IMG/VR virus record: IMGVR_UViG_646206259_000001 | Source: a virus | Lineage: Duplodnaviria > Heunggongvirae > Uroviricota > Caudoviricetes | Length of the DNA stretch: 40,052 bases | Strand: one strand, 5' to 3' | Made by a program: the position numbers and the translations under genes | Shown here: piece by piece, positions 1-35,092 of the stretch | Layout: every line of letters starts with the position of its first letter | Position numbering within the stretch: position 1 is the stretch's first letter | Notes under the pieces: model-generated | Database searches by the model: none | What the model saw: the letters and a program-made list of their open reading frames with translations, nothing else | Told to the model about the DNA's origin: nothing

Positions 1-498
1 CATATTCTTTTCGGCGACATGCTCGGGATAACCATCGGCGATATAATCCAGACGATGATTATTGCCGGGCTGGTTACACTTGTTATTAGCGTAAAATGGC
101 GGGATTTTTTGCTGTTCAGCTTTGATTATCAACAGGCGCAGGTAAGCGGTTTGCATACGAGATGGCTGCATTATGGGCTGCTGTGCATGGTCTCTCTGAC
201 CATTGTGGCGACGCTGAAAGCGGTAGGTATCATTCTCTCCATTTCTCTGCTCATTGCGCCTGGCGCCATTGCGGTACTCCTGACACAACGCTTTCATATT
301 GCGCTCCTACTGGCGACTGGCATATCGGTAATAGTGTCAATGACTGGTGTCTGGTTGTCCTTTTTTATCGACAGCGCACCAGCTCCGACGATTGTCGTCT
401 TATTCGCGGTTTTGTTCATCATGACGTTTGCCGTTACCAGCATCAACGCACGCAAAAAGGGAAACTCCCATACACAGGATCTGTTATCACCCAATTAG
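1..498 (+). CDS. sitD: Metal (Mn/Fe) ABC transporter permease, C-terminal part; 5' end lies outside the window
   Basis: Frame open from base 1 to the stop at 496-498; polytopic hydrophobic protein with ABC-3 permease-like segments; SitD/MntB family resemblance from memory. Confidence 0.55.
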   Translation, partial: HILFGDMLGITIGDIIQTMIIAGLVTLVISVKWRDFLLFSFDYQQAQVSGLHTRWLHYGLLCMVSLTIVATLKAVGIILSISLLIAPGAIAVLLTQRFHIALLLATGISVIVSMTGVWLSFFIDSAPAPTIVVLFAVLFIMTFAVTSINARKKGNSHTQDLLSPN

Positions 499-3289: not shown

Positions 3290-6200
3290 TCAACTGATAC
3301 TGATACCGGCTGTAGATTTCTTCATCACAACAACAAGAAGGTCGCTGATACTGGTCGTTGGCGTCCAGTTATTAGCACCATATGAAGAAACATTGAAAGT
3401 CAGGGTGACATGGCCGTGTCCGGCAGGCATATCAATGACTGATGAAAATACCCTGCTGACATCCGTCGCGGGTTGCTGAAAGATTTCCTGTCCGTTCTTC
3501 AGTACCTGCAGCTTACAGGTTGAATACCAGTATGACTGTTGGTTGTTGCTGTTGAAGTTTTCATGCTTACCCCCACGAAACAGAACGGGGGGGACTACTA
3601 TCTGACGGTCAAAAGCCTGGTCATCGTACACAGTGACCGTTATTGTACCGCTGGCATAACTGCCATTTCTCGGAAAGGCTTTTCCCACCGTTTTGACAAT
3701 ATCACCTTCAATCTGGTTAGCTGACAGTTTTCCCAGAATCCGACAGTTCTGATTAATCGTGACGTTGTTGAGCGTCCCGGAGTTCGCGTTCACGTTACCG
3801 CTGATATCCGCATTTTTCGCAGAAAGTCGACCATCAGGTGTCAGTGAAAACGTTGGGGGATTGCCACCGCTGGTAATGGTGGGAGCCGTCAGATATTTCA
3901 GGAACACTTCGTTCATGAATATCTGATCGCCCTGCCCAACAAACATCGGCTTTGTGTTGCCATTCGCAGGATTAATCATCGCAATCCTGTCCGCCGCCAG
4001 CAGCACCTGACTCTGCATACCGTCAGGAGTATTCTCAACACCGGCACCAATACCCGCGATATAAAGGCGTCCGTCCTGCATCTGCTGCAGCTTCACAGCC
4101 CACATGCTGTTCAGGTTATTATTTGTATCAACCTGAACCTTCTGTATCTGCTGGATCGCTGCACTCTGGTCTTCCAGTTTCTTATTGACGGTCTGCGTGA
4201 TTTCATTGCTGACACCCGTAATGGACGTCCTGATTTCAGCCAGGTCAGGCGCAAGCTGACCGTTATCAATCTGCGTCCACAACTCCTGAGCCAGATGGGT
4301 TTTCCCTATCTCTCCTTTGAAAAAATCCAGATAGCCGGATGCATCATCACTCGGCTGGCCAACAGCCTCCACAAATGCCGATTTGCCAACGGTGTTCACA
4401 CTGCGGATGTAAAAATAATAATCATGGCCCGGTTTGATATTGATACTGGCGGCTATCCAGTACAGCGCCGTGCCAAGATAGCGTGCTGTGGTTTCAACCT
4501 GCCTGATATCCGCAATCCGCTTTTCCGAGAACCAGAACTCAAACTGTACCGTCGGATCATAAACCGCAAGATGCGGCGTGGCGGTTATCTGAAAATACCC
4601 CGGTGTCAGCTCAATCTGCGACGGCGCTGCCGGTGCGGCAATCCGGAACGATACCGATNNNNNNNNNNNNNNNNNNNNNNNNNNNNNNNNNNNNNNNNNN
4701 NNNNNNNNNNNNNNNNNNNNNNNNNNNNNNNNNNNNNNNNNNNNNNNNNNNNNNNNNNNNNNNNNNNNNNNNNNNNNNNNNNNNNNNNNNNNNNNNNNNN
4801 NNNNNNNNNNNNNNNNNNNNNNNNNNNNNNNNNNNNNNNNNNNNNNNNNNNNNNNNNNNNNNNNNNNNNNNNNNNNNNNNNNNNNNNNNNNNNNNNNNNN
4901 NNNNNNNNNNNNNNNNNNNNNNNNNNNNNNNNNNNNNNNNNNNNNNNNNNNNNNNNNNNNNNNNNNNNNNNNNNNNNNNNNNNNNNNNNNNNNNNNNNNN
5001 NNNNNNNNNNNNNNNNNNNNNNNNNNNNNNNNNNNNNNNNNNNNNNNNNNNNNNNNNNNNNNNNNNNNNNNNNNNNNNNNNNNNNNNNNNNNNNNNNNNN
5101 NNNNNNNNNNNNNNNNNNNNNNNNNNNNNNNNNNNNNNNNNNNNNNNNNNNNNNNNNNNNNNNNNNNNNNNNNNNNNNNNNNNNNNNNNNNNNNNNNNNN
5201 NNNNNNNNNNNNNNNNNNNNNNNNNNNNNNNNNNNNNNNNNNNNNNNNNNNNNNNNNNNNNNNNNNNNNNNNNNNNNNNNNNNNNNNNNNNNNNNNNNNN
5301 NNNNNNNNNNNNNNNNNNNNNNNNNNNNNNNNNNNNNNNNNNNNNNNNNNNNNNNNNNNNNNNNNNNNNNNNNNNNNNNNNNNNNNNNNNNNNNNNNNNN
5401 NNNNNNNNNNNNNNNNNNNNNNNNNNNNNNNNNNNNNNNNNNNNNNNNNNNNNNNNNNNNNNNNNNNNNNNNNNNNNNNNNNNNNNNNNNNNNNNNNNNN
5501 NNNNNNNNNNNNNNNNNNNNNNNNNNNNNNNNNNNNNNNNNNNNNNNNNNNNNNNNNNNNNNNNNNNNNNNNNNNNNNNNNNNNNNNNNNNNNNNNNNNN
5601 NNNNNNNNNNNNNNNNNNNNNNNNNNNNNNNNNNNNNNNNNNNNNNNNNNNNNNNNNNNNNNNNNNNNNNNNNNNNNNNNNNNNNNNNNNNNNNNNNNNN
5701 NNNNNNNNNNNNNNNNNNNNNNNNNNNNNNNNNNNNNNNNNNNNNNNNNNNNNNNNNNNNNNNNNNNNNNNNNNNNNNNNNNNNNNNNNNNNNNNNNNNN
5801 NNNNNNNNNNNNNNNNNNNNNNNNNNNNNNNNNNNNNNNNNNNNNNNNNNNNNNNNNNNNNNNNNNNNNNNNNNNNNNNNNNNNACTGGTCTGTGGTGCT
5901 GTCCGGCGTCATCCTGCGCATCCGGATATTAAACGGGCGCGGCGGCAGGTTATCCACCACCACCGAGGCCAGATACTGCGAGGTGGTTTTGCCTTTAATG
6001 GTGATGTCTTTTTCCGTCACCCAGCCACCGTTACGCTGTATCTGAACCAGCAGGCGGACTTCCGACGGATTCCGGTCCCCCTTTGAGGTGGTTTCCACCA
6101 GTGCCTGCACACCGAAGGTAAAGCGCAGACGGTCGATGTTTGCAGACGTGATGGTCCGGGTAATCGGCGTGTCGTACTTCACTTCCGTACCCAGCACCGT

Positions 6201-7023: not shown

Positions 7024-7959
7024 NNNNNNNNNNNNNNNNNNNNNNNNNNNNNNNNNNNNNNNNNNNNNNNNNNNNNNNNNNNNNNNNNNNNNNNNNNNNN
7101 NNNNNNNNNNNNNNNNNNNNNNNNNNNNNNNNNNNNNNNNNNNNNNNNNNNNNNNNNNNNNNNNNNNNNNNNNNNNNNNNNNNNNNNNNNNNNNNNNNNN
7201 NNNNNNNNNNNNNNNNNNNNNNNNNNNNNNNNNNNNNNNNNNNNNNNNNNNNNNNNNNNNNNNNNNNNNNNNNNNNNNNNNNNNNNNNNNNNNNNNNNNN
7301 NNNNNNNNNNNNNNNNNNNNNNNNNNNNNNNNNNNNNNNNNNNNNNNNNNNNNNNNNNNNNNNNNNNNNNNNNNNNNNNNNNNNNNNNNNNNNNNNNNNN
7401 NNNNNNNNNNNNNNNNNNNNNNNNNNNNNNNNNNNNNNNNNNNNNNNNNNNNNNNNNNNNNNNNNNNNNNNNNNNNNNNNNNNNNNNNNNNNNNNNNNNN
7501 NNNNNNNNNNNNNNNNNNNNNNNNNNNNNNNNNNNNNNNNNNNNNNNNNNNNNNNNNNNNNNNNNNNNNNNNNNNNNNNNNNNNNNNNNNNNNNNNNNNN
7601 NNNNNNNNNNNNNNNNNNNNNNNNNNNNNNNNNNNNNNNNNNNNNNNNNNNNNNNNNNNNNNNNNNNNNNNNNNNNNNNNNNNNNNNNNNNNNNNNNNNN
7701 NNNNNNNNNNNNNNNNNNNNNNNNNNNNNNNNNNNNNNNNNNNNNNNNNNNNNNNNNNNNNNNNNNNNNNNNNNNNNNNNNNNNNNNNNNNNNNNNNNNN
7801 NNNNNNNNNNNNNNNNNNNNNNNNNNNNNNNNNNNNNNNNNNNNNNNNNNNNNNNNNNNNNNNNNNNNNNNNNNNNNNNNNNNNNNNNNNNNNNNNNNNN
7901 NNNNNNNNNNNNNNNNNNNNNNNNNNNNNNNNNNNNNNNNNNNNNNNNNNNNNNNNNNN
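7024..7959. other. N-run where H C-terminus, M, L, K and I N-terminus are expected
   Basis: 936 consecutive n; shorter than the ~2.1 kb the missing genes need. Confidence 1.
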
Positions 7960-10568
7960 GTGAAGACAAATTCACCACGGTGAACAATCCCCGCTGGCTC
8001 ATATTTGCCGCCGGTTCCCGTAAATCCCCCGGTCGCAAAACGGAATTTCGCCGCAGCGGCCTGAATGGCTGTACCGCCTGACGCGGATGCTCCACCACTG
8101 GCAGCACCGCCAATGGCGCTGCCGATACTCCCGACAATCCCCACCATTGCCTGCTTAAGCAGAATTTCTGTCATCATGGACAGCACGGAACGGGTGAAGC
8201 TGCGCCAGTTCTGCTCACTGCCGGTCAGCATCGCCGCCATATTCTGTGCAATACCATCAAAGGTCTGCGTGGCTGCACTTTTAACCTGCGACATACTGTC
8301 CGTGGCGCTCTCTTCCCACTCACTCCAGCCGGACTTCAGGCCTGCCATCCAGCTCCCGCGAAGCTGGTCTTCAGCCGCCCAGGTCTTTTTCTGCTCTGAC
8401 ATGACGTTATTCAGCGCCAGCGGATTATCGCCATACTGTTCCTTCAGGCGCTGTTCCGTGGCTTCCCGTTCTGCCTGCCGGTCAGTCAGCCCCCGGCTTT
8501 TCGCATCAATGGCGGCCCGTTTTGCCCGTTGCTGCTGTGCGAATTTATCCGCCTGCTGCGCCAGCGCGTTCAGGCGCTCCTGATACGTAACCTTGTCGCC
8601 AAGTGCAGCCAGCTGGCGTTTGTACTCCAGCGTCTCATCTTTATGCGCCAGCAGGGATTTCTCCTGTGCAGACAGCTGGCGACGTTGCGCCGCCTCCTCC
8701 AGTACCGCGAACTGACTCTCCGCCTTCCACAAATCCCGGCGCTGCTGGCTGATTTTCTCATTCGCTCCGGCATGCTTCTCCAGCGTCCGGAGTTCTGCCT
8801 GAAGCGTCAGCAGGGCGGCATGAGCACTGTCTTCCTGACGATCGCCCGCAGACACCTTCACGCCGGACTGTTTCGGCTTTTTCAGCGTCGCTTCATAATC
8901 CTTTTTCGCCGCCGCCATCAGCGTGTTGTAATCCGCCTGCAGGATTTTCCCGTCTTTCAGTGCCTTGTTCAGTTCTTCCTGACGGGCGGTATATTTCTCC
9001 AGCGGCGTCTGCAGCCGTTCGTAAGCCTTCTGCGCCTCTTCGGTATATTTCAGCCGTGACGCTTCGGTATCGCTCTGCTGCTGCGCATTTTTGTCCTGTT
9101 GAGTCTGCTGCTCAGCCTTCTTTCGGGCGGCTTCAAGCGCAAGACGGGCCTTTTCACGATCATCCCAGTAACGCGCCCGCGCTTCATCGTTAACAAAATA
9201 ATCATCCTTGCGCAGATTCCAGATGTCGTCTGCTTTCTTAAACGCAGCCTCTGCCTTAATCAGCATCTCCTGCGCGGTATCAGGACGACCAATATCCAGC
9301 ACCGCATCCCACATGGATTTGAATGCCCGCGCTGTCCTGTCTGCCCAGGTCTCCAGCGTGCCCATGTTCTCTTTCAGGCGGCGGGTCTGGTCATCAAACC
9401 CTTTCGTTGCGGCTTCGTTCGCCGCCTGCAATGCCCCGGCTTCATCGCCGGAACGCTGCAACTGAGCAACATACGCAATCTGCTCCGCCGTCACGTTATG
9501 GAACTGGCGCGCCATCGCCGTCAGCCCCGACGTCGGGTCAGTGGTCAGCTTCCCGAAGGCTTCAGCGACCTTGTCCACCTCCACGCCGGATGCAGAGGAG
9601 AAACGCGCCACACTCTGGCTGATGGACGCAATCTGAGCCTCACCGCTTACCCCCGCCTTAACCAGTGCACTGAGTGACTCGCTGGTCTGGTTAAACGTCA
9701 GCCCTGCCGCCTGCCCGGCTCTGGACAGGACCAGCATACGATCTGCCGTCAGACCTGACTGATGACCGGAAAGGACCAGCGTTTTGTTGAAATCGGACAG
9801 GGTTGAGTTACCCTGATACCAGGCATACGCCAGCGCACCGGTCNNNNNNNNNNNNNNNNNNNNNNNNNNNNNNNNNNNNNNNNNNNNNNNNNNNNNNNNN
9901 NNNNNNNNNNNNNNNNNNNNNNNNNNNNNNNNNNNNNNNNNNNNNNNNNNNNNNNNNNNNNNNNNNNNNNNNNNNNNNNNNNNNNNNNNNNNNNNNNNNN
10001 NNNNNNNNNNNNNNNNNNNNNNNNNNNNNNNNNNNNNNNNNNNNNNNNNNNNNNNNNNNNNNNNNNNNNNNNNNNNNNNNNNNNNNNNNNNNNNNNNNNN
10101 NNNNNNNNNNNNNNNNNNNNNNNNNNNNNNNNNNNNNNNNNNNNNNNNNNNNNNNNNNNNNNNNNNNNNNNNNNNNNNNNNNNNNNNNNNNNNNNNNNNN
10201 NNNNNNNNNNNNNNNNNNNNNNNNNNNNNNNNNNNNNNNNNNNNNNNNNNNNNNNNNNNNNNNNNNNNNNNNNNNNNNNNNNNNNNNNNNNNNNNNNNNN
10301 NNNNNNNNNNNNNNNNNNNNNNNNNNNNNNNNNNNNNNNNNNNNNNNNNNNNNNNNNNNNNNNNNNNNNNNNNNNNNNNNNNNNNNNNNNNNNNNNNNNN
10401 NNNNNNNNNNNNNNNNNNCCGGTTCATTGACTGTTCAACGACTGCCGCTGTTTTTTTCGCATCACTTTCCGTACCGGAAAAATGACGCCTGACTCTGGCC
10501 ATCTGCTCGTCAAATCTGGCTGCATCCAGACTTAAATCAACGACCAGATCGCCTACCGGTTCAGCCAT
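7960..10568 (-). CDS. H: Tail tape measure protein H (C-terminus in N-run 7024-7959; internal N-run 9844-10418)
   Basis: MAEPVGDLVVDLSLDAARFDEQMARVRRHF... at the N-terminus and long coiled-coil region ending ...GGKYEPAGIVHRGEFVF match lambda gpH. Confidence 0.9.
9844..10418. other. N-run inside H
   Basis: 575 consecutive n. Confidence 1.
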
Positions 10569-15255: not shown

Positions 15256-16812
15256 NNNNNNNNNNNNNNNNNNNNNNNNNNNNNNNNNNNNNNNNNNNNN
15301 NNNNNNNNNNNNNNNNNNNNNNNNNNNNNNNNNNNNNNNNNNNNNNNNNNNNNNNNNNNNNNNNNNNNNNNNNNNNNNNNNNNNNNNNNNNNNNNNNNNN
15401 NNNNNNNNNNNNNNNNNNNNNNNNNNNNNNNNNNNNNNNNNNNNNNNNNNNNNNNNNNNNNNNNNNNNNNNNNNNNNNNNNNNNNNNNNNNNNNNNNNNN
15501 NNNNNNNNNNNNNNNNNNNNNNNNNNNNNNNNNNNNNNNNNNNNNNNNNNNNNNNNNNNNNNNNNNNNNNNNNNNNNNNNNNNNNNNNNNNNNNNNNNNN
15601 NNNNNNNNNNNNNNNNNNNNNNNNNNNNNNNNNNNNNNNNNNNNNNNNNNNNNNNNNNNNNNNNNNNNNNNNNNNNNNNNNNNNNNNNNNNNNNNNNNNN
15701 NNNNNNNNNNNNNNNNNNNNNNNNNNNNNNNNNNNNNNNNNNNNNNNNNNNNNNNNNNNNNNNNNNNNNNNNNNNNNNNNNNNNNNNNNNNNNNNNNNNN
15801 NNNNNNNNNNNNNNNNNNNNNNNNNNNNNNNNNNNNNNNNNNNNNNNNNNNNNNNNNNNNNNNNNNNNNNNNNNNNNNNNNNNNNNNNNNNNNNNNNNNN
15901 NNNNNNNNNNNNNNNNNNNNNNNNNNNNNNNNNNNNNNNNNNNNNNNNNNNNNNNNNNNNNNNNNNNNNNNNNNNNNNNNNNNNNNNNNNNNNNNNNNNN
16001 NNNNNNNNNNNNNNNNNNNNNNNNNNNNNNNNNNNNNNNNNNNNNNNNNNNNNNNNNNNNNNNNNNNNNNNNNNNNNNNNNNNNNNNNNNNNNNNNNNNN
16101 NNNNNNNNNNNNNNNNNNNNNNNNNNNNNNNNNNNNNNNNNNNNNNNNNNNNNNNNNNNNNNNNNNNNNNNNNNNNNNNNNNNNNNNNNNNNNNNNNNNN
16201 NNNNNNNNNNNNNNNNNNNNNNNNNNNNNNNNNNNNNNNNNNNNNNNNNNNNNNNNNNNNNNNNNNNNNNNNNNNNNNNNNNNNNNNNNNNNNNNNNNNN
16301 NNNNNNNNNNNNNNNNNNNNNNNNNNNNNNNNNNNNNNNNNNNNNNNNNNNNNNNNNNNNNNNNNNNNNNNNNNNNNNNNNNNNNNNNNNNNNNNNNNNN
16401 NNNNNNNNNNNNNNNNNNNNNNNNNNNNNNNNNNNNNNNNNNNNNNNNNNNNNNNNNNNNNNNNNNNNNNNNNNNNNNNNNNNNNNNNNNNNNNNNNNNN
16501 NNNNNNNNNNNNNNNNNNNNNNNNNNNNNNNNNNNNNNNNNNNNNNNNNNNNNNNNNNNNNNNNNNNNNNNNNNNNNNNNNNNNNNNNNNNNNNNNNNNN
16601 NNNNNNNNNNNNNNNNNNNNNNNNNNNNNNNNNNNNNNNNNNNNNNNNNNNNNNNNNNNNNNNNNNNNNNNNNNNNNNNNNNNNNNNNNNNNNNNNNNNN
16701 NNNNNNNNNNNNNNNNNNNNNNNNNNNNNNNNNNNNNNNNNNNNNNNNNNNNNNNNNNNNNNNNNNNNNNNNNNNNNNNNNNNNNNNNNNNNNNNNNNNN
16801 NNNNNNNNNNNN
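15256..16812. other. N-run where D N-terminus, C/Nu3 and B C-terminus are expected
   Basis: 1557 consecutive n. Confidence 1.
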
Positions 16813-18462: not shown

Positions 18463-19902
18463 NNNNNNNNNNNNNNNNNNNNNNNNNNNNNNNNNNNNNN
18501 NNNNNNNNNNNNNNNNNNNNNNNNNNNNNNNNNNNNNNNNNNNNNNNNNNNNNNNNNNNNNNNNNNNNNNNNNNNNNNNNNNNNNNNNNNNNNNNNNNNN
18601 NNNNNNNNNNNNNNNNNNNNNNNNNNNNNNNNNNNNNNNNNNNNNNNNNNNNNNNNNNNNNNNNNNNNNNNNNNNNNNNNNNNNNNNNNNNNNNNNNNNN
18701 NNNNNNNNNNNNNNNNNNNNNNNNNNNNNNNNNNNNNNNNNNNNNNNNNNNNNNNNNNNNNNNNNNNNNNNNNNNNNNNNNNNNNNNNNNNNNNNNNNNN
18801 NNNNNNNNNNNNNNNNNNNNNNNNNNNNNNNNNNNNNNNNNNNNNNNNNNNNNNNNNNNNNNNNNNNNNNNNNNNNNNNNNNNNNNNNNNNNNNNNNNNN
18901 NNNNNNNNNNNNNNNNNNNNNNNNNNNNNNNNNNNNNNNNNNNNNNNNNNNNNNNNNNNNNNNNNNNNNNNNNNNNNNNNNNNNNNNNNNNNNNNNNNNN
19001 NNNNNNNNNNNNNNNNNNNNNNNNNNNNNNNNNNNNNNNNNNNNNNNNNNNNNNNNNNNNNNNNNNNNNNNNNNNNNNNNNNNNNNNNNNNNNNNNNNNN
19101 NNNNNNNNNNNNNNNNNNNNNNNNNNNNNNNNNNNNNNNNNNNNNNNNNNNNNNNNNNNNNNNNNNNNNNNNNNNNNNNNNNNNNNNNNNNNNNNNNNNN
19201 NNNNNNNNNNNNNNNNNNNNNNNNNNNNNNNNNNNNNNNNNNNNNNNNNNNNNNNNNNNNNNNNNNNNNNNNNNNNNNNNNNNNNNNNNNNNNNNNNNNN
19301 NNNNNNNNNNNNNNNNNNNNNNNNNNNNNNNNNNNNNNNNNNNNNNNNNNNNNNNNNNNNNNNNNNNNNNNNNNNNNNNNNNNNNNNNNNNNNNNNNNNN
19401 NNNNNNNNNNNNNNNNNNNNNNNNNNNNNNNNNNNNNNNNNNNNNNNNNNNNNNNNNNNNNNNNNNNNNNNNNNNNNNNNNNNNNNNNNNNNNNNNNNNN
19501 NNNNNNNNNNNNNNNNNNNNNNNNNNNNNNNNNNNNNNNNNNNNNNNNNNNNNNNNNNNNNNNNNNNNNNNNNNNNNNNNNNNNNNNNNNNNNNNNNNNN
19601 NNNNNNNNNNNNNNNNNNNNNNNNNNNNNNNNNNNNNNNNNNNNNNNNNNNNNNNNNNNNNNNNNNNNNNNNNNNNNNNNNNNNNNNNNNNNNNNNNNNN
19701 NNNNNNNNNNNNNNNNNNNNNNNNNNNNNNNNNNNNNNNNNNNNNNNNNNNNNNNNNNNNNNNNNNNNNNNNNNNNNNNNNNNNNNNNNNNNNNNNNNNN
19801 NNNNNNNNNNNNNNNNNNNNNNNNNNNNNNNNNNNNNNNNNNNNNNNNNNNNNNNNNNNNNNNNNNNNNNNNNNNNNNNNNNNNNNNNNNNNNNNNNNNN
19901 NN
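18463..19902. other. N-run where Nu1, terminase large subunit A and W N-terminus are expected
   Basis: 1440 consecutive n; shorter than the ~2.5 kb expected. Confidence 1.
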
Positions 19903-19938
19903 GAAAATTTCGGCAAGCCTCTTTTTATTAACCTTCAT
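19903..19938 (-). CDS. nu1: Terminase small subunit Nu1, first 12 codons only (rest in N-run)
   Basis: MKVNKKRLAEIF... resembles lambda Nu1 MEVNKKQLADIF; lies at the expected distance from cos. Confidence 0.7.
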
Positions 19939-19939
19939 G

Positions 19940-20130
19940 AAAACAACCCATTATCAAATACAAGGCCCGACATGAAAACGCCAGAAAAAGGCATTTTCGG
20001 ACACTTTCATGTCGGACCTTTACGGATGCAATATTAAAAAAACAAAAAGTTATATTCGAGAAGTACCGACACGATTTTCCCTGAAAAATTTTCATAAATA
20101 GTGAAAAACCGCGAGGTCGCCGCCCCGTAA
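19940..20130 (-). other. cos site: cosN at 20114-20125 (12-nt cohesive end GGGCGGCGACCT on the minus strand) plus cosB region toward Nu1
   Basis: Plus strand ...AACCGCGAGGTCGCCGCCCC... is the reverse complement of the lambda left end GGGCGGCGACCTCGCGGTTTT; flanking CACTATTTATGAAAATTTT also lambda-like. Confidence 0.85.
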
Positions 20131-20273
20131 CCTGTTGGATCGACGGAAAGGACCCGAAAACGAGAATAATTATCACTTACAGCAAGAATCGAATCTGATC
20201 TATTATGGTGCTTGCTATTATGTGCCGGCACAAGTGCGTCGTTTACCGTCATTTCACACAGAGGCATCATCAA

Positions 20274-20525
20274 ATGAAAATCAGAAATATTCTCGCTATC
20301 TCCCTTGCGACATCATCCTTCAGTTGCCTGGCATTTAAATCCTCGCCCAATGTGCTACCAGGACCAACGAATCAACTAACTGCGGTAGAAAGTAAAATTA
20401 TCGGACATTTTTATGCCCCACACAGTACATTACCCGGAACAACCATCACAGGGACATGTGACGCCTCCCCCGTCCCGGGATGCACCTGTCCGTTTTGTAC
20501 TATGCTGCGTAGCCAAAACCGATAA
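20274..20525 (+). CDS. Hypothetical small secreted Cys-containing protein (83 aa) with N-terminal signal peptide
   Basis: ATG at 20274 after AGAGG-type RBS; MKIRNILAISLATSSFSCLA is signal-peptide-like; mature part has 5 Cys. Confidence 0.45.
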   Translation: MKIRNILAISLATSSFSCLAFKSSPNVLPGPTNQLTAVESKIIGHFYAPHSTLPGTTITGTCDASPVPGCTCPFCTMLRSQNR

Positions 20526-20586
20526 CATCCGCATTTACCTGGTATTCCATGATGAGTTCACGCAGCGACTGATAGAGGAAGGAAAG

Positions 20587-20766
20587 ATGGTTAGTAAAAG
20601 CAAGGCGCATTGCCGCCGCATGCTGCAGGCATTGCAACAGACGAGAGCAGGTATTTTTGACCAGTTGGAAAACTGCCAGCATACTTTGCCCGAGTATATC
20701 GCCATCTCATCGGAAACCAGTGCAACTCTTATTCATCGGGTTCCACCAGAGAAAAAGAAGAAATGA
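20587..20766 (+). CDS. Hypothetical protein (59 aa)
   Basis: ATG preceded by GAGGAAGGA RBS; followed by a hairpin terminator. Confidence 0.35.
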   Translation: MVSKSKAHCRRMLQALQQTRAGIFDQLENCQHTLPEYIAISSETSATLIHRVPPEKKKK

Positions 20767-20773
20767 ACAGTGA

Positions 20774-20803
20774 GGCGTTGTGTGGCATACAACGCCTTCT
20801 TCC
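20774..20803 (+). terminator. Rho-independent terminator candidate
   Basis: Stem GGCGTTGT / ACAACGCC with 7-nt loop followed by TTCTTCC. Confidence 0.4.
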
Positions 20804-20888
20804 ATCATTCCTCGTCAGCCATGACAAAAATATAACCGCTGGCTCTTTCATTTTTCTCCTGCTTCCAGCCCCTCTCTACCTGGAAGCA

Positions 20889-21215
20889 TCAAGGACGTGA
20901 CGGCGTAAAGATAAATTGTCTCTTCACTCCCTGACAGGGGCGATTCTTTTCAAATCGCCATTTCGCCATGGCCTTCACCACTTCATCACGAAACAAATTA
21001 TGAGGCTCTGAGCGGAGAAAAACGATCCGTGTCACAGTCCCATCAGCACCAATATCGAACTTAACCTCAACCAGCCCCTTGATATAATTTGCTGCAGCAT
21101 ATTCCGGATATCGTGGATACACCGTCACTAATTGCCGGGGCTCATCAGCTTTTTGCTGCGAGCATCCCACTGCCAGGACAGATAACAGAAAAAGTAGTAA
21201 AAGGCGTCTTTTCAT
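20889..21215 (-). CDS. Lipoprotein with TonB C-terminal-like domain (108 aa)
   Basis: MKRRLLLLFLLSVLAVGCSQQ has a lipobox (LAVGC); remainder ...YPRYPEYAAANYIKGLVEVKFDIGADGTVTRIVFLRSEPHNLFRDEVVKAMAKWRF fits the TonB_C pattern; AGGA RBS. Confidence 0.6.
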   Translation of the reverse strand: MKRRLLLLFLLSVLAVGCSQQKADEPRQLVTVYPRYPEYAAANYIKGLVEVKFDIGADGTVTRIVFLRSEPHNLFRDEVVKAMAKWRFEKNRPCQGVKRQFIFTPSRP

Positions 21216-21695
21216 TTTTATTCCTACGGGTCTTATTCTGACAATATATCCTGTGTTCCAGACTGCCACATCACCACATCCTGTGCCATTATCTGACTCA
21301 CATTACATACATCGCATCGGGATACAGTAGTAGCACTTTCTGTAATACAGCTTCCTGTTTCTTCCACCATCGCACCGGGATAAACCCGCGAATCATTAAC
21401 GCGGTAAAAACCCGGTGTGCATCGTTTTTAATTATTCCCGCACACTCACGCAGAAGGAATTCCCCGTCGGGCTACGGTCATGGTTAATGCGGGAATACGG
21501 CGACGATACAGCGCAGCTAAAAGGGTAATGGACGGATAGACCGGTTTATTTCATTCCACAGGATTCTGAGTGTCCCCAACTTCCTCCAATAGTCTGAGCC
21601 CACCTGTGTAGTTTTAATTTTCATCAATCCATTTAACTATCGTTTAATTGTTGTCACATAGGATTCTGCCGTTTTTAACAATGCAGGATAATAAG

Positions 21696-21989
21696 ATGAA
21701 AAAAATGTTGTTTTCTGCCGCTCTGGCAATGCTTATTACAGGATGTGCTCAACAGACGTTTACTGTTGGAAACAAACCTACAGCAGTAACACCAAAGGAA
21801 ACCATCACCCATCATTTCTTCGTTTCGGGAATTGGGCAGAAGAAAACTGTCGATGCAGCAAAAATTTGTGGTGGTGCAGAAAATGTTGTTAAAACAGAAA
21901 CCCAGCAAACATTCGTAAATGGATTGCTCGGTTTTATTACTTTAGGCATTTATACTCCGCTGGAAGCGCGTGTGTATTGCTCACAATAA
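21696..21989 (+). CDS. bor: Bor lipoprotein (serum resistance / lysogenic conversion)
   Basis: MKKMLFSAALAMLITGCAQQTFTV...GIYTPLEARVYCSQ, 97 aa, matches lambda Bor; opposite strand to the lysis genes as in lambda. Confidence 0.9.
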   Translation: MKKMLFSAALAMLITGCAQQTFTVGNKPTAVTPKETITHHFFVSGIGQKKTVDAAKICGGAENVVKTETQQTFVNGLLGFITLGIYTPLEARVYCSQ

Positions 21990-22020: not shown

Positions 22021-22597
22021 CTATCTGCACTGCTCATTAATATACTTCTGGGTTCCTTCCAGTTGTTTTTGCATAGTGATCAGCCTCTNNNNNNNNNNNN
22101 NNNNNNNNNNNNNNNNNNNNNNNNNNNNNNNNNNNNNNNNNNNNNNNNNNNNNNNNNNNNNNNNNNNNNNNNNNNNNNNNNNNNNNNNNNNNNNNNNNNN
22201 NNNNNNNNNNNNNNNNNNNNNNNNNNNNNNNNNNNNNNNNNNNNNNNNNNNNNNNNNNNNNNNNNNNNNNNNNNNNNNNNNNNNNNNNNNNNNNNNNNNN
22301 NNNNNNNNNNNNNNNNNNNNNNNNNNNNNNNNNNNNNNNNNNNNNNNNNNNNNNNNNNNNNNNNNNNNNNNNNNNNNNNNNNNNNNNNNNNNNNNNNNNN
22401 NNNNNNNNNNNNNNNNNNNNNNNNNNNNNNNNNNNTATGTCAGTAATTACCGCGTTCGCCAGCGTCAGTTCTCTGGCATTTTTGTCGCGCTGGGCTTTGT
22501 AGGTAATGGCGTTATCACGGTAATGATTAACAGCCCATGACAGGCAGACGATGATGCAGATAACCAGAGCGGAGATAATCGCGGTTACTCTGTTCAT
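22021..22597 (-). CDS. Rz: Spanin Rz (i-spanin), interrupted by N-run 22089-22435; Rz1 presumably inside the N-run
   Basis: N-terminus [38 protein letters not shown]... and C-terminus ...[21 protein letters not shown] match lambda Rz, but the two parts are in different frames. Confidence 0.8.
22089..22435. other. N-run inside Rz
   Basis: 347 consecutive n. Confidence 1.
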
Positions 22598-23091
22598 TGC
22601 TGACCCCACAAACAGATTTCACGCTCAATCTCACGACGAGTCATGAGACCTTTCCATTGCTTACCGCCAGCATATGTCCAGCGACGTAGCTGATCACATG
22701 CGCCTTTGATATCGCCCTGGTTTATTTTGCGAAGAAGCGTCGATGTTCTGAAATTGCCAGCACCCACGTTGTAAACGAATGAGTAAAGAGCGCCGCGCAT
22801 TGTTTCCGGTATATCGACTTTGATGTACGGGTTAATTTGTCTGGCGACCGTGGCAAGGTCTTTATTCAGGAGGGCTTTGCATTCTGCTTTGGTATACGTT
22901 TTACCGAGCATGATGTCTTTTCCTGTATGCCCGTGACATACAGTCCATACACCAACAATATCTTTGTATGGTATGTAGCTGACACCTTCCAGACCATCGT
23001 TACCACTTGGGCCAGTGATTAACACTGATGCTATAGCAATTGCTCCGCCACCAATAGCAGCAGCAACGGCTTTTCGTAATGATGGAGGCAT
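22594..23091 (-). CDS. R: SAR endolysin R (phage 21 type, T4-lysozyme-like)
   Basis: N-terminal Gly/Ala-rich signal-arrest-release segment ([18 protein letters not shown]) and E-8-D-5-T catalytic spacing ([17 protein letters not shown]); matches P21 R from memory. Confidence 0.85.
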
Positions 23092-23306
23092 TATTCACCT
23101 CTCGCAGCCTTGCGCTTATCTTCTTTAATCTTGAAATAAAGGTTTGTCAGGTACGTCAGCAGGCCAAATACCAGGCTACCCAGCACACCTATTGCCGCCC
23201 ACTGTGAGGGCGTGACTTTATCGAGCAACTGTAAAAACCAGTACCCGGCACTACCTGCTGAGGTACCATAGGCGACACCCGTTGTTAACTTATCCATGGA
23301 TTTCAT
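23091..23306 (-). CDS. S: Pinholin S (phage 21 S21 type) with dual-start motif
   Basis: 71 aa, [26 protein letters not shown]...; Met1/Met4 dual start, two TMDs, charged C-terminus. Confidence 0.85.
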
Positions 23307-23894: not shown

Positions 23895-24977
23895 ATGAAA
23901 AAATTAACAGTGGCAATTTCTGCTGTAGCTGCATCAGTACTGATGGCGATGTCTGCTCAGGCAGCTGAAATTTATAATAAAGACAGTAACAAGCTGGATC
24001 TATACGGGAAAGTTAATGCCAAGCACTACTTCTCCTCTAATGATGCAGATGATGGTGATACTACTTATGCCCGTCTTGGCTTCAAAGGTGAAACCCAAAT
24101 CAACGATCAACTGACTGGTTTCGGTCAGTGGGAATATGAATTCAAAGGCAACCGTGCTGAATCTCAAGGTTCTTCCAAAGACAAAACCCGTCTTGCATTT
24201 GCAGGCCTGAAATTTGGTGATTACGGCTCAATCGATTACGGCCGTAACTACGGTGTAGCATACGACATCGGTGCGTGGACTGACGTTCTGCCAGAATTCG
24301 GTGGTGATACCTGGACCCAAACAGATGTGTTCATGACTGGTCGCACTACTGGTGTTGCAACTTATCGTAACAACGACTTCTTTGGTCTGGTCGATGGCCT
24401 GAACTTTGCTGCTCAGTATCAGGGTAAAAATGACCGCACTGACGTAACTGAAGCCAATGGTGATGGTTTCGGTTTCTCCACTACTTATGAGTATGAAGGA
24501 TTCGGCGTGGGTGCAACCTATGCTAAATCAGATCGCACTGACGGTCAGGTCGCCTATGGTAAGAGCAAATTCAATGCCTCCGGCAAAAATGCGGAAGTAT
24601 GGGCTGCAGGCCTGAAATATGATGCGAACAATATCTATCTGGCTACCACATATTCTGAAACTCAGAATATGACCGTTTTTGGTAATAACCATATTGCAAA
24701 CAAAGCACAAAACTTTGAAGCAGTAGCACAATATCAGTTTGACTTCGGTCTGCGTCCATCTGTTGCTTACCTTCAGTCAAAAGGTAAAGACCTTGGTGTT
24801 CATGGTGACCGAGACTTAGTCAAGTATGTCGATGTCGGTGCTACTTACTACTTTAATAAAAACATGTCCACTTTTGTTGATTACAAAATCAACTTAATTG
24901 ACGATAGTAAGTTTACCAAAACAGCTGGTATTGATACCGACGACATCGTCGCTGTAGGTCTGGTTTATCAGTTCTAA
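23895..24977 (+). CDS. Outer membrane general porin, OmpC/OmpF/NmpC/Lc family (lysogenic conversion)
   Basis: Signal peptide [23 protein letters not shown], porin beta-strand pattern, C-terminal ...VAVGLVYQF; antisense in the Q-S interval as nmpC in DLP12 and lc in PA-2. Confidence 0.85.
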
Positions 24978-25165: not shown

Positions 25166-25549
25166 TCAATTAGAATTATTAGCAACGATATCCATATCTA
25201 ACCGGATATCTAATGCCATTAACATCCCTTCAATTATGCCCTCAGCCTTCTGTAACCTTTTCCCGATATAACCATCCGAGCAGCAATGCTTACTTGCCAG
25301 TGACATGAATGTCATACCACATACATAATAATCTACTAATAAATCGTGTAAATCGCTGTTGTTCTTTTTCAGACGGGCCATGCACCCGCAAATGATCATC
25401 GCGTCATCGTCACAACATTGCGGGCGAGATTTTACTTTTGAAGGAATTAATCCCTTAAAACCGGCGGCAATGGACGACCAGGTCACATCTTCATGATTAT
25501 TAGCCGCCCACGCACCCCAACGCTCAAGAACCATCTGAATATCACGCAT
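25166..25549 (-). CDS. Late gene antiterminator Q (QuuD-like, 127 aa)
   Basis: Cys-rich 127-aa protein immediately upstream of the late region and downstream of rusA/ylcG; resembles DLP12 QuuD from memory. Confidence 0.6.
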
Positions 25550-25634
25550 CAACTTACTCCACAAAAATCAGACCAGAACGCCAATTACAAGCAAAAATCA
25601 ACAAAACAGTATTAGTTGATTGTTATCTCTGACT

Positions 25635-34855: not shown

Positions 34856-34927
34856 GCGCGGCGTTACCGCATACCAATTACGCTTCACTCGAGGCGTTTT
34901 TCGTTATGTATAAATAAGGAGCACACC

Positions 34928-35092
34928 ATGCAATATGCCATTGCAGGGTGGCCTGTTGCTGGCTGCCCTTCCGAATCTTTACTTGAACGAATCACCCGTA
35001 AATTACGTGACGGATGGAAACGCCTTATCGACATACTTAATCAGCCAGGAGTCCCAAAAAATGGATCAAACAATTATGGCTATCCAGACTAA
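34928..35092 (+). CDS. cIII: CIII protein (FtsH inhibitor), 54 aa
   Basis: Hand translation [54 protein letters not shown] matches lambda CIII; absent from the ORF track (<60 aa). Confidence 0.85.
   Translation: MQYAIAGWPVAGCPSESLLERITRKLRDGWKRLIDILNQPGVPKNGSNNYGYPD

Follow-up and report, generated by a model that had tools for sequence, protein, structure and literature searches.

In the FhuA-TonB structure the TonB box of the receptor pairs in parallel with strand β3 of the TonB C-terminus, by β-augmentation (PMC11658791). TonB fragments secreted into the periplasm (residues 33-239, 103-239 and 122-239) inhibit TonB-dependent transport, as related in work citing Howard et al. (2001), and the same secondary accounts describe a block of ferrichrome transport and of other TonB-dependent functions by such anchorless fragments. 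The phage lipoproteins Cor and Llp lie in the inner leaflet of the outer membrane and act on the periplasmic face of FhuA; their acylation is essential, and TonB partly occludes the same surface. We have analyzed a gene of the virus record IMGVR_UViG_646206259_000001 (Caudoviricetes) whose product is a predicted lipoprotein with a bare TonB C-terminal (TonB_C) domain. The window, by which we mean the whole stretch of 40,052 nucleotides (nt), is a lambdoid prophage; over its structural half it matches phage 21 at 98.7% identity, and over its early half the ECOR-derived phage PhiR63_2 and ev207 at about 100%. We suggest, tentatively, that this is a selectively maintained lysogenic-conversion gene whose product may act as a non-productive competitor for the TonB box, dampening TonB-dependent uptake.

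The gene is read from the minus strand and has the following features.

20889-21215, minus strand: coding sequence of the TonB_C lipoprotein, 108 amino acids (aa) and a stop codon, identical to phage 21 CPT_21_73
21223-21226, minus strand: Shine-Dalgarno sequence AGGA, 7 nt 5′ of the ATG, kept in the 72%-identical clade
21162-21215, minus strand: signal peptide and lipobox, residues 1-18, MKRRLLLLFLLSVLAVG-C18
20901-21140, minus strand: TonB_C domain, residues 26-105, corresponding to Escherichia coli TonB about 153-232

The open reading frame (ORF) starts with an ATG at 21215-21213 and stops at 20891-20889, and its product reads MKRRLLLLFLLSVLAVGC and then SQQKADEPRQ...FIFTPSRP. A 126-aa version with a GTG start (to 21269) is mechanical only; CPT and PGAP both give the 108-aa form. 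The first-pass annotation, made from the letters alone, had placed a 108-aa ORF here between bor and cos, with a lipobox signal peptide (LAVGC) and a TonB_C domain, for which it named a Pfam hidden Markov model search as the check. The ORF and its location are confirmed, with bor at 21696-21989 (plus strand) and cosQ at 20149-20155, and the signal peptide and the domain stand equally well on the results given below.

The gene and its domain annotation are already known and are not new. The protein is 100% identical to CPT_21_73 / UMO75484.1 of phage 21, labelled 'TonB C-terminal domain protein'; the PGAP name for the same protein in UTI89 is WP_000830178.1 'TonB family protein', and six further phage records carry the identical gene as 'Partial tonB-like membrane protein', 'TonB fragment' or 'TonB family protein'. 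Full-text literature searches aimed at the function of the gene found no function paper on a phage TonB-like lipoprotein, and a PADLOC scan for defence systems gave no match for the protein. As far as we have searched, the combination of a lipobox with a bare TonB_C domain, its prevalence, its apparent expression in lysogens and its possible action on the TonB box are unstudied.

The N-terminus has an n-region rich in lysine and arginine (MKRR), an uncharged h-region (LLLLFLLSV), a lipobox (LAVG before C18) and serine at +2. A lipobox of the rule [LVI][ASTVI][GAS]C thus follows a positive n-region and a hydrophobic h-region, and LAVG-C18 also fits the classical PROSITE lipoprotein pattern. Cys18 is invariant in an alignment of nine sequences of close and distant relatives, and the lipobox cysteine is present in all phage and chromosomal relatives of the lipoprotein type. 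Since the residue at +2 is Ser and not Asp, there is no inner-membrane retention signal, and sorting of the lipoprotein to the outer membrane is predicted.

The rest of the protein is a TonB_C domain. Pfam PF03544 matches with 49.2 bits (E = 7.3e-13), above its gathering score of 24.6, and TIGR01352 with 47.4 bits against a cut-off of 27.1. A phmmer comparison with the TonB chains of the PDB gives E = 1.4e-14 and aligns residues 24-103 without a gap onto TonB about 151-230; residue i of the protein is therefore TonB residue i+127. Identity to the E. coli TonB C-terminus (about residues 150-239; 1U07, 1XX3, 2GSK, 2GRX) is 38-41% over ~80 residues, and the domain keeps the order α1-β1-β2-α2-β3, with the last strand of TonB absent. 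A first AlphaFold run on six near-identical sequences gave a predicted local distance difference test score (pLDDT) of 57 and was left out of the fold search. The AlphaFold2 model made from 16 diverse family sequences has a mean pLDDT of 87.7, and exceeds 95 over residues about 30-100. In a Foldseek search of the PDB with this model the top matches are all TonB C-termini. They include, with a probability of 1.00 and a root-mean-square deviation (rmsd) of 0.9-1.4 Å, 1u07 (1.4 Å), chain B of 2gsk, which is TonB from the BtuB complex (1.0 Å, template modelling score 0.92), and chain C of 2grx, which is TonB from the FhuA complex (0.9 Å). Salmonella and Pseudomonas TonB and the TonB homologue FusB are also among them. 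The predicted fold thus overlays on TonB in its receptor-bound conformation. The BFVD library of viral structures contains no match at E≤0.001.

The mature protein begins at Cys18, continues with a tether of ~8 residues (SQQKADEP) and ends with a module equivalent to TonB 153-235, almost the same stretch as the 81-residue chain that is ordered in the crystal of the BtuB:TonB complex. Profiles of TonB equivalogs (NCBIfam PRK10819) score 44.8-69.2 bits against cut-offs of 265-448, with only profile positions about 150-240 matched. Judged by its sequence the protein is not a TonB, as it has neither the membrane anchor nor the proline-rich spacer and starts with a lipoprotein signal of the cleavable kind. 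Unlike E. coli TonB it is predicted to be lipid-anchored, at the outer membrane, and has no last strand; coupling to ExbBD is not expected, the transmembrane segment that this requires being absent.

The gene is widespread and its family extends beyond E. coli. It is found by blastn in 1617 of 5426 complete E. coli genomes (about 30%), in 1202 of them at ≥99% identity and in 392 in a second clade at 60-80%; the exact protein occurs on at least 1000 contigs of a large collection, and the lysogens include UTI89 and ATCC 25922. A HMMER scan of 1.84 billion representatives gave 2795 matches containing TonB_C, with ~20 short proteins (98-135 aa) among the best matches that align from residue 1 and mostly have a lipobox. 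The E. coli sequences fall into two clades, one of the window type and one 72% identical to it, which occurs in phages encoding Shiga toxin (Stx) 1a and in O55/O157 phages. Klebsiella prophages contribute clades at 40-48% identity, and further relatives occur in Raoultella, Serratia, Erwinia and Pantoea. The context in phages is constant, after the lysis cassette and before the terminase on the late strand (phage 21, JLK-2012, Klebsiella phage ST13-OXA48phi12.4). A deliberately crude BLAST panel finds a lysis gene upstream in 112 of the 134 loci with enough upstream flank; this lysis/terminase panel is too insensitive for distant loci, where the ORF contexts were read by eye.

Between the two E. 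coli clades the ratio of nonsynonymous to synonymous divergence (dN/dS, Nei-Gojobori) is 0.12 at dS 1.46; it is about 0.12 within the domain, and the median in the Klebsiella clade is 0.17. By this comparison of sequences the gene is clearly under purifying selection and selectively maintained.

The gene lies in an insertion whose limits can be placed by comparison with collinear phages.

20157-21376, no strand assigned: insertion module of ~1.22 kb, starting right after cosQ and ending at the 139-nt element
21377-21515, no strand assigned: conserved structured 139-nt element, the upstream module boundary
21216-21695, no strand assigned: divergent intergenic region of 480 bp, with the TonB_C gene leftward and bor/iss rightward
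21696-21989, plus strand: bor/iss lipoprotein gene, the divergent neighbour

The phage 21 genome end corresponds to window 20125/20126. Phages 4A7 and 1W have the same cos/cosQ flank (window 19903-20156) and the 139-nt element, with ~95 bp between them, so that in the window 1.22 kb replaces the ~95 bp of 4A7 between identical flanks. The 72% clade shares only the gene and ~300 nt upstream with the window.

Expression can be followed in a matching lysogen. Prophage NC-SV of the adherent-invasive E. coli (AIEC) strain NC101 is lambda-like and integrated in icd at the phage 21 site (PMC12803456). Its accessory genes match those of the window: an ompC-like porin, iss, a TonB family protein and sitABCD. 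RNA sequencing (RNA-seq) of NC101 and of its prophage deletion has been published (supplement of PMC12803456), from cells sampled 10 min after infection with another phage, and for the deleted genes the size of the log fold change (logFC) gives expression in the lysogen. GQ584_RS06965, 'TonB family protein', has a logFC of -9.91 (P = 1.6e-11) and is fifth of the 31 prophage genes detected, compared with an about equal -9.76 for a helix-turn-helix regulator, -6.15 for iss and -5.6 to -7.8 for sitABCD. Missing from the table are six locus tags that lie between ompC and the structural genes, as well as any terminase or prophage-holin entry, and because the late genes (lysis, head) do not appear there we take them not to be expressed in the lysogen. 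The locus thus behaves in a way that fits a lysogenic-conversion gene and not a late gene, given an unstranded library and an allele identified by its annotation. The term moron, applied to the gene in the first-pass annotation, gains from the phage-specific insertion and from a transcript of the locus while the late genes are silent, the latter within the limit of the unstranded library.

Five hypothetical or DUF4145 genes of the NC101 prophage (GQ584_RS06840, RS06845, RS06945, RS06880 and RS07115) have logFC values of -9.8 to -11.7, and several of these exceed the TonB_C locus in their transcription in the lysogen. RS06945 sits between the porin and iss in NC101.

We have compared the family with TonB residue by residue, in an alignment of 58 distinct family sequences of the lipoprotein type with E. 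coli TonB and 23 host TonBs from the same scans. Strand β3 is kept in the family. The A165 position of TonB is usually Tyr, and the family sequences lack all of TonB beyond about residue 235, its last strand included. Cysteine scanning of TonB 150-239 found only Y163, F180, G186, F202, W213, Y215 and F230 to be functionally important (PMC3005593). All seven are kept in the 58 sequences, the Y, G, F and W being invariant and the others F or Y; the equivalents in the window are Y36-P37 (the YP motif), F53, G59, F75, W86, F88 and F103.

The manner of action that we propose is as follows. The 8-residue tether would hold the lone TonB C-terminal domain directly below the outer-membrane transporters. 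Because the membrane anchor of TonB, its proline-rich spacer and its coupling to ExbBD are missing, the protein could not deliver energy. The TonB box of a TonB-dependent transporter, or that of an incoming group-B colicin, would pair with the free β3 edge of the protein, TonB would then be shut out, and the entry of heterologous phages, colicins and microcins via TonB would be dampened, at some cost to siderophore uptake. The terminal strand of TonB fills the TonB-box site in dimeric crystals; if this role is correct, loss of the strand would leave the β3 edge permanently free. The receptor of phage 21 is LamB, which is not TonB-dependent, so any benefit would lie in keeping out other phages or in withstanding colicins and microcins; blocking of the phage's own receptor is rejected on account of LamB. 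An anti-Drexlerviridae phenotype of NC-SV was considered as an effect of this gene and rejected, as its authors assign it to svsR and a related phage uses LptD.

A TonB-C decoy had been proposed in the first-pass annotation. The precedent of inhibitory periplasmic TonB fragments and the retention of β3 speak for it, and binding and phenotype stay proposals. As far as the citing work describes them, the engineered fragments (Howard et al. 2001; ompT(ss)-TonB(33-239) of the Postle laboratory) likewise place an un-energised TonB domain in the periplasm; the phage protein differs in being natural, ~40% identical, shorter (153-235), predicted to be lipidated and expressed from a prophage at its native level.

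A number of observations weigh against the proposal or weaken one of its comparisons. Some concern Cor (phi80, N15, HK022, mEp167) and Llp (T5), to which the first-pass annotation had drawn an analogy. Shared with these is a small phage lipoprotein, predicted here also to lie in the inner leaflet of the outer membrane, that would act on a TonB-dependent transporter from its periplasmic face. There is no homology of sequence or fold, since Cor and Llp share another, unrelated fold; they act specifically on FhuA, which the phage itself uses as receptor, whereas the receptor of phage 21 is LamB and our protein would be directed at the TonB box in general; and the TonB_C gene lies beside cos and not beside tail genes. 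No cor-like gene follows J or stf.

Others concern the residues. The seven functionally important residues of TonB are buried in the solved structures (PMC3005593), and for this reason their retention speaks for the fold only; it proves fold and not function, and may reflect nothing else. The family has a conserved surface signature of its own, YPxYAxAN and SEPxHLFD. TonB R166, which touches FhuA E56, is invariant in 23/23 host TonBs and is Tyr in 53/58 family members. The Q160 segment is variable in the family, and the Q160 region is genetically tied to TonB-box recognition, Q160 substitutions suppressing TonB-box mutations. Q160L is mentioned in PMC11658791.

The expression data have limits of the same bearing. 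The NC101 locus was equated with the window gene by annotation and accessory set. The library kit was apparently non-directional and there is an antisense σ70-like site within the ORF, and the strand of the transcript is therefore unproven. On deletion of the prophage, in rich medium, genes of the Fur regulon show no significant change (logFC -0.23 for fhuA, -0.75 for fiu, -0.31 for fhuE and -0.44 for exbB).

The gene is also present in siderophore-dependent pathogens such as UTI89; UTI89 and ATCC 25922 depend on, or show normal, TonB-dependent uptake. Finally, in Serratia, Erwinia, Pantoea and Raoultella the more distant relatives occur as single genes on the chromosome, outside phage contexts. 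A strong pan-TonB inhibitor is unlikely in view of these siderophore-dependent hosts, the unchanged Fur regulon, the change of R166 to Tyr with the divergence around Q160, and the chromosomal relatives outside phages.

Several of the same points would be expected of a TonB_C domain that has been neofunctionalised for another ligand, such as an outer-membrane protein, peptidoglycan or an imported substrate, and that confers a surface or virulence trait like that of Bor/Iss. The family's own surface signature and the substitution of R166 by Tyr in 53/58 sequences point this way, as do the chromosomal relatives outside phages and lysogens that appear TonB-proficient with an unchanged Fur regulon. 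FusB of Pectobacterium (7ZC8, 9HI3) has the TonB_C fold, its C-terminal domain has been solved with ferredoxin (9hi3) and is among the top structural matches, and it shows that the domain can gain new ligands, although FusB itself is a full-length energy transducer anchored in the inner membrane and not a lipoprotein. Bor/Iss is a small outer-membrane lipoprotein encoded divergently at the same bor-cos hot spot, and its gene too has transcripts at its locus in the lysogen; it has no kinship of sequence or fold with our protein, and is tied to serum resistance. On the other side, no search points to an alternative ligand, the gene neighbourhoods are uninformative, and the β3 edge and the geometry match receptor-bound TonB at about 1 Å. 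We regard another ligand as somewhat unlikely.

Sequestration of TonB itself is improbable. Here the tethered domain would form a heterodimer with the C-terminus of host TonB as this arrives at the outer membrane, tie up TonB and not the transporters, and be dominant-negative, as over-produced TonB or its periplasmic domain is. TonB C-termini do interact in vivo, as disulfide-linked dimers via conserved aromatics (PMC3005593), and the aromatics are kept in the phage protein. The same study reports that the crystal dimers do not exist in vivo (PMC3005593). The phage protein has the aromatics just mentioned and a domain that stops at about TonB 235. The strand that mediates exchange in the crystal dimer, if its structural role is as we take it to be, is missing.

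The label of PHROG_1267, a family that the protein matches over its full length with E = 5e-43, is 'Rz-like spanin'. In phages of E. coli, of the Stx type and of Klebsiella the gene follows the lysis cassette (S-R-Rz) and precedes the terminase on the late strand, and this position would suit a lysis accessory or spanin-like late protein. Such a role is very improbable. A complete Rz/Rz1 pair is already annotated, and bor and 480 bp lie between the gene and Rz; the protein has the TonB_C fold, lacks a transmembrane segment at its C-terminus and shows nothing of the proline-rich character of an o-spanin; and there is transcription of the locus in the lysogen, where lysis genes are undetected. 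Since fold and architecture contradict a spanin, the family label is probably a positional mis-annotation. The only strong PHROG matches of the lipoprotein are phrog_1267 and phrog_34172.

Least probable of all is a non-functional captured fragment of tonB, as the labels 'partial tonB-like' and 'TonB fragment' and the missing two thirds of TonB might suggest, for it is effectively refuted by the selection analysis (dN/dS 0.12 with near-saturated synonymous divergence), and stands against a lipoprotein signal peptide acquired and conserved across clades and a full-length ORF kept in >1600 genomes at a transcribed locus.

Statements on the surroundings of the gene are affected by six N-masked runs in the window (4659-5884, 7024-7959, 9844-10418, 15256-16812, 18463-19902 and 22089-22435), which hide parts of J, other tail and head genes, terminase and Rz/Rz1; there we have used the phage 21 and UTI89 records. 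The insertion module contains three further ORFs.

20500-20682, minus strand: small module ORF, PHROG_3744
20729-20851, minus strand: small module ORF
20274-20525, plus strand: 83-codon ORF with a signal-peptide-like start MKIRNILAISLATSSFSCLA and a Cys-rich C-terminus CDASPVPGCTCPFC

The 83-codon ORF has no Pfam or PHROG match and is absent from the CPT and PGAP annotation, and the other small ORFs of the module gave no informative matches. A 45-aa ORF at 21233-21370 was considered as a partner gene and rejected, its frame not being conserved in the 72% clade and no family matching it.

The intergenic region must hold one or more lysogenic promoters. Upstream of the gene on the minus strand there is no convincing σ70 promoter by consensus, the best candidates matching at 8/12 positions, and no Fur box reaches 12/19 in 20851-21700. 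A σ70-like site at 21061-21088 (plus strand) lies inside the TonB_C ORF and is antisense to it, with TTAACC, 16 nt, TATAAT and an upstream TG (10/12). It points to bor, and could give an antisense transcript or serve as a distal bor promoter. Conservation of the 139-nt element is 92-98% across dozens of lambdoid and Stx phages, regardless of whether they have the TonB_C gene. Inverted repeats are nested within the element, and the RNA of the minus strand folds with -56.9 kcal/mol (z = -2.55). No Rfam family corresponds to the element, and an Rfam scan of the TonB_C gene region was empty; the sole Rfam family at the gathering threshold in the window is Lambda_thermo, the cIII thermoregulator, at 34915-34973 (plus strand, 88.5 bits).

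An OmpC/NmpC-like porin gene at 23895-24977 (plus strand) lies opposite the late strand, between the genes for the Q antiterminator (25166-25564, minus strand) and the holin (23091-23306, minus strand). It is annotated as OmpD/OmpC in related phages and UTI89, and its logFC in the NC101 lysogen is -7.2.

The chromosomal neighbours of the relatives in Klebsiella and Raoultella are lacZ/lacI and a yagU-like gene, and the Serratia relative lies between ycgN and dsbB/nhaB, near minCD. A DUF1440/YagU-like inner-membrane gene stands beside TonB_C lipoprotein genes both in Klebsiella prophages and on Klebsiella and Raoultella chromosomes (L206 1232-1858, L138 1169-1795, L086 6749-7312, L088 6738-7301). 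This co-occurrence may reflect joint capture or a functional link.

The window begins inside sitD (19-498, plus strand). Phage 21 and prophages of the NC-SV type encode the complete iron/manganese ABC importer SitABCD beyond the tail-fibre genes (L002 8968-12417); the 72% clade occurs in Stx phages without sit. It is suggestive that one prophage should carry both a possible TonB blocker and a metal importer that does not need TonB, and in phage-21-type prophages SitABCD might offset the siderophore cost.

If the gene does not encode a competitor for the TonB box, it would still be a conversion gene that is widespread and maintained by selection, and its PHROG family would need a label other than 'Rz-like spanin'. 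If it does, it would be the first natural protein inhibitor of the generic contact between the TonB box and TonB, instead of one receptor, and could provide a ready-made minimal scaffold for anti-TonB inhibitors. We rate the system as one that would combine receptor-face exclusion lipoproteins with dominant-negative TonB fragments. In its widest form, which we think rather unlikely, the proposal is that a natural mimic of the TonB tip, tethered to the outer membrane in about 30% of complete E. coli genomes, tunes all TonB-dependent traffic in lysogens, trading resistance to T1/phi80-type phages, group-B colicins, microcins and siderophore-antibiotics against siderophore uptake. A competitor for the TonB box would be a broad-spectrum exclusion device distinct from Cor and Llp in about one third of complete E. 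coli genomes, among them uropathogenic E. coli (UPEC), AIEC and Stx-phage lysogens, and could explain differences between strains in their sensitivity to TonB-dependent phages, colicins, microcins and possibly siderophore-conjugated antibiotics.

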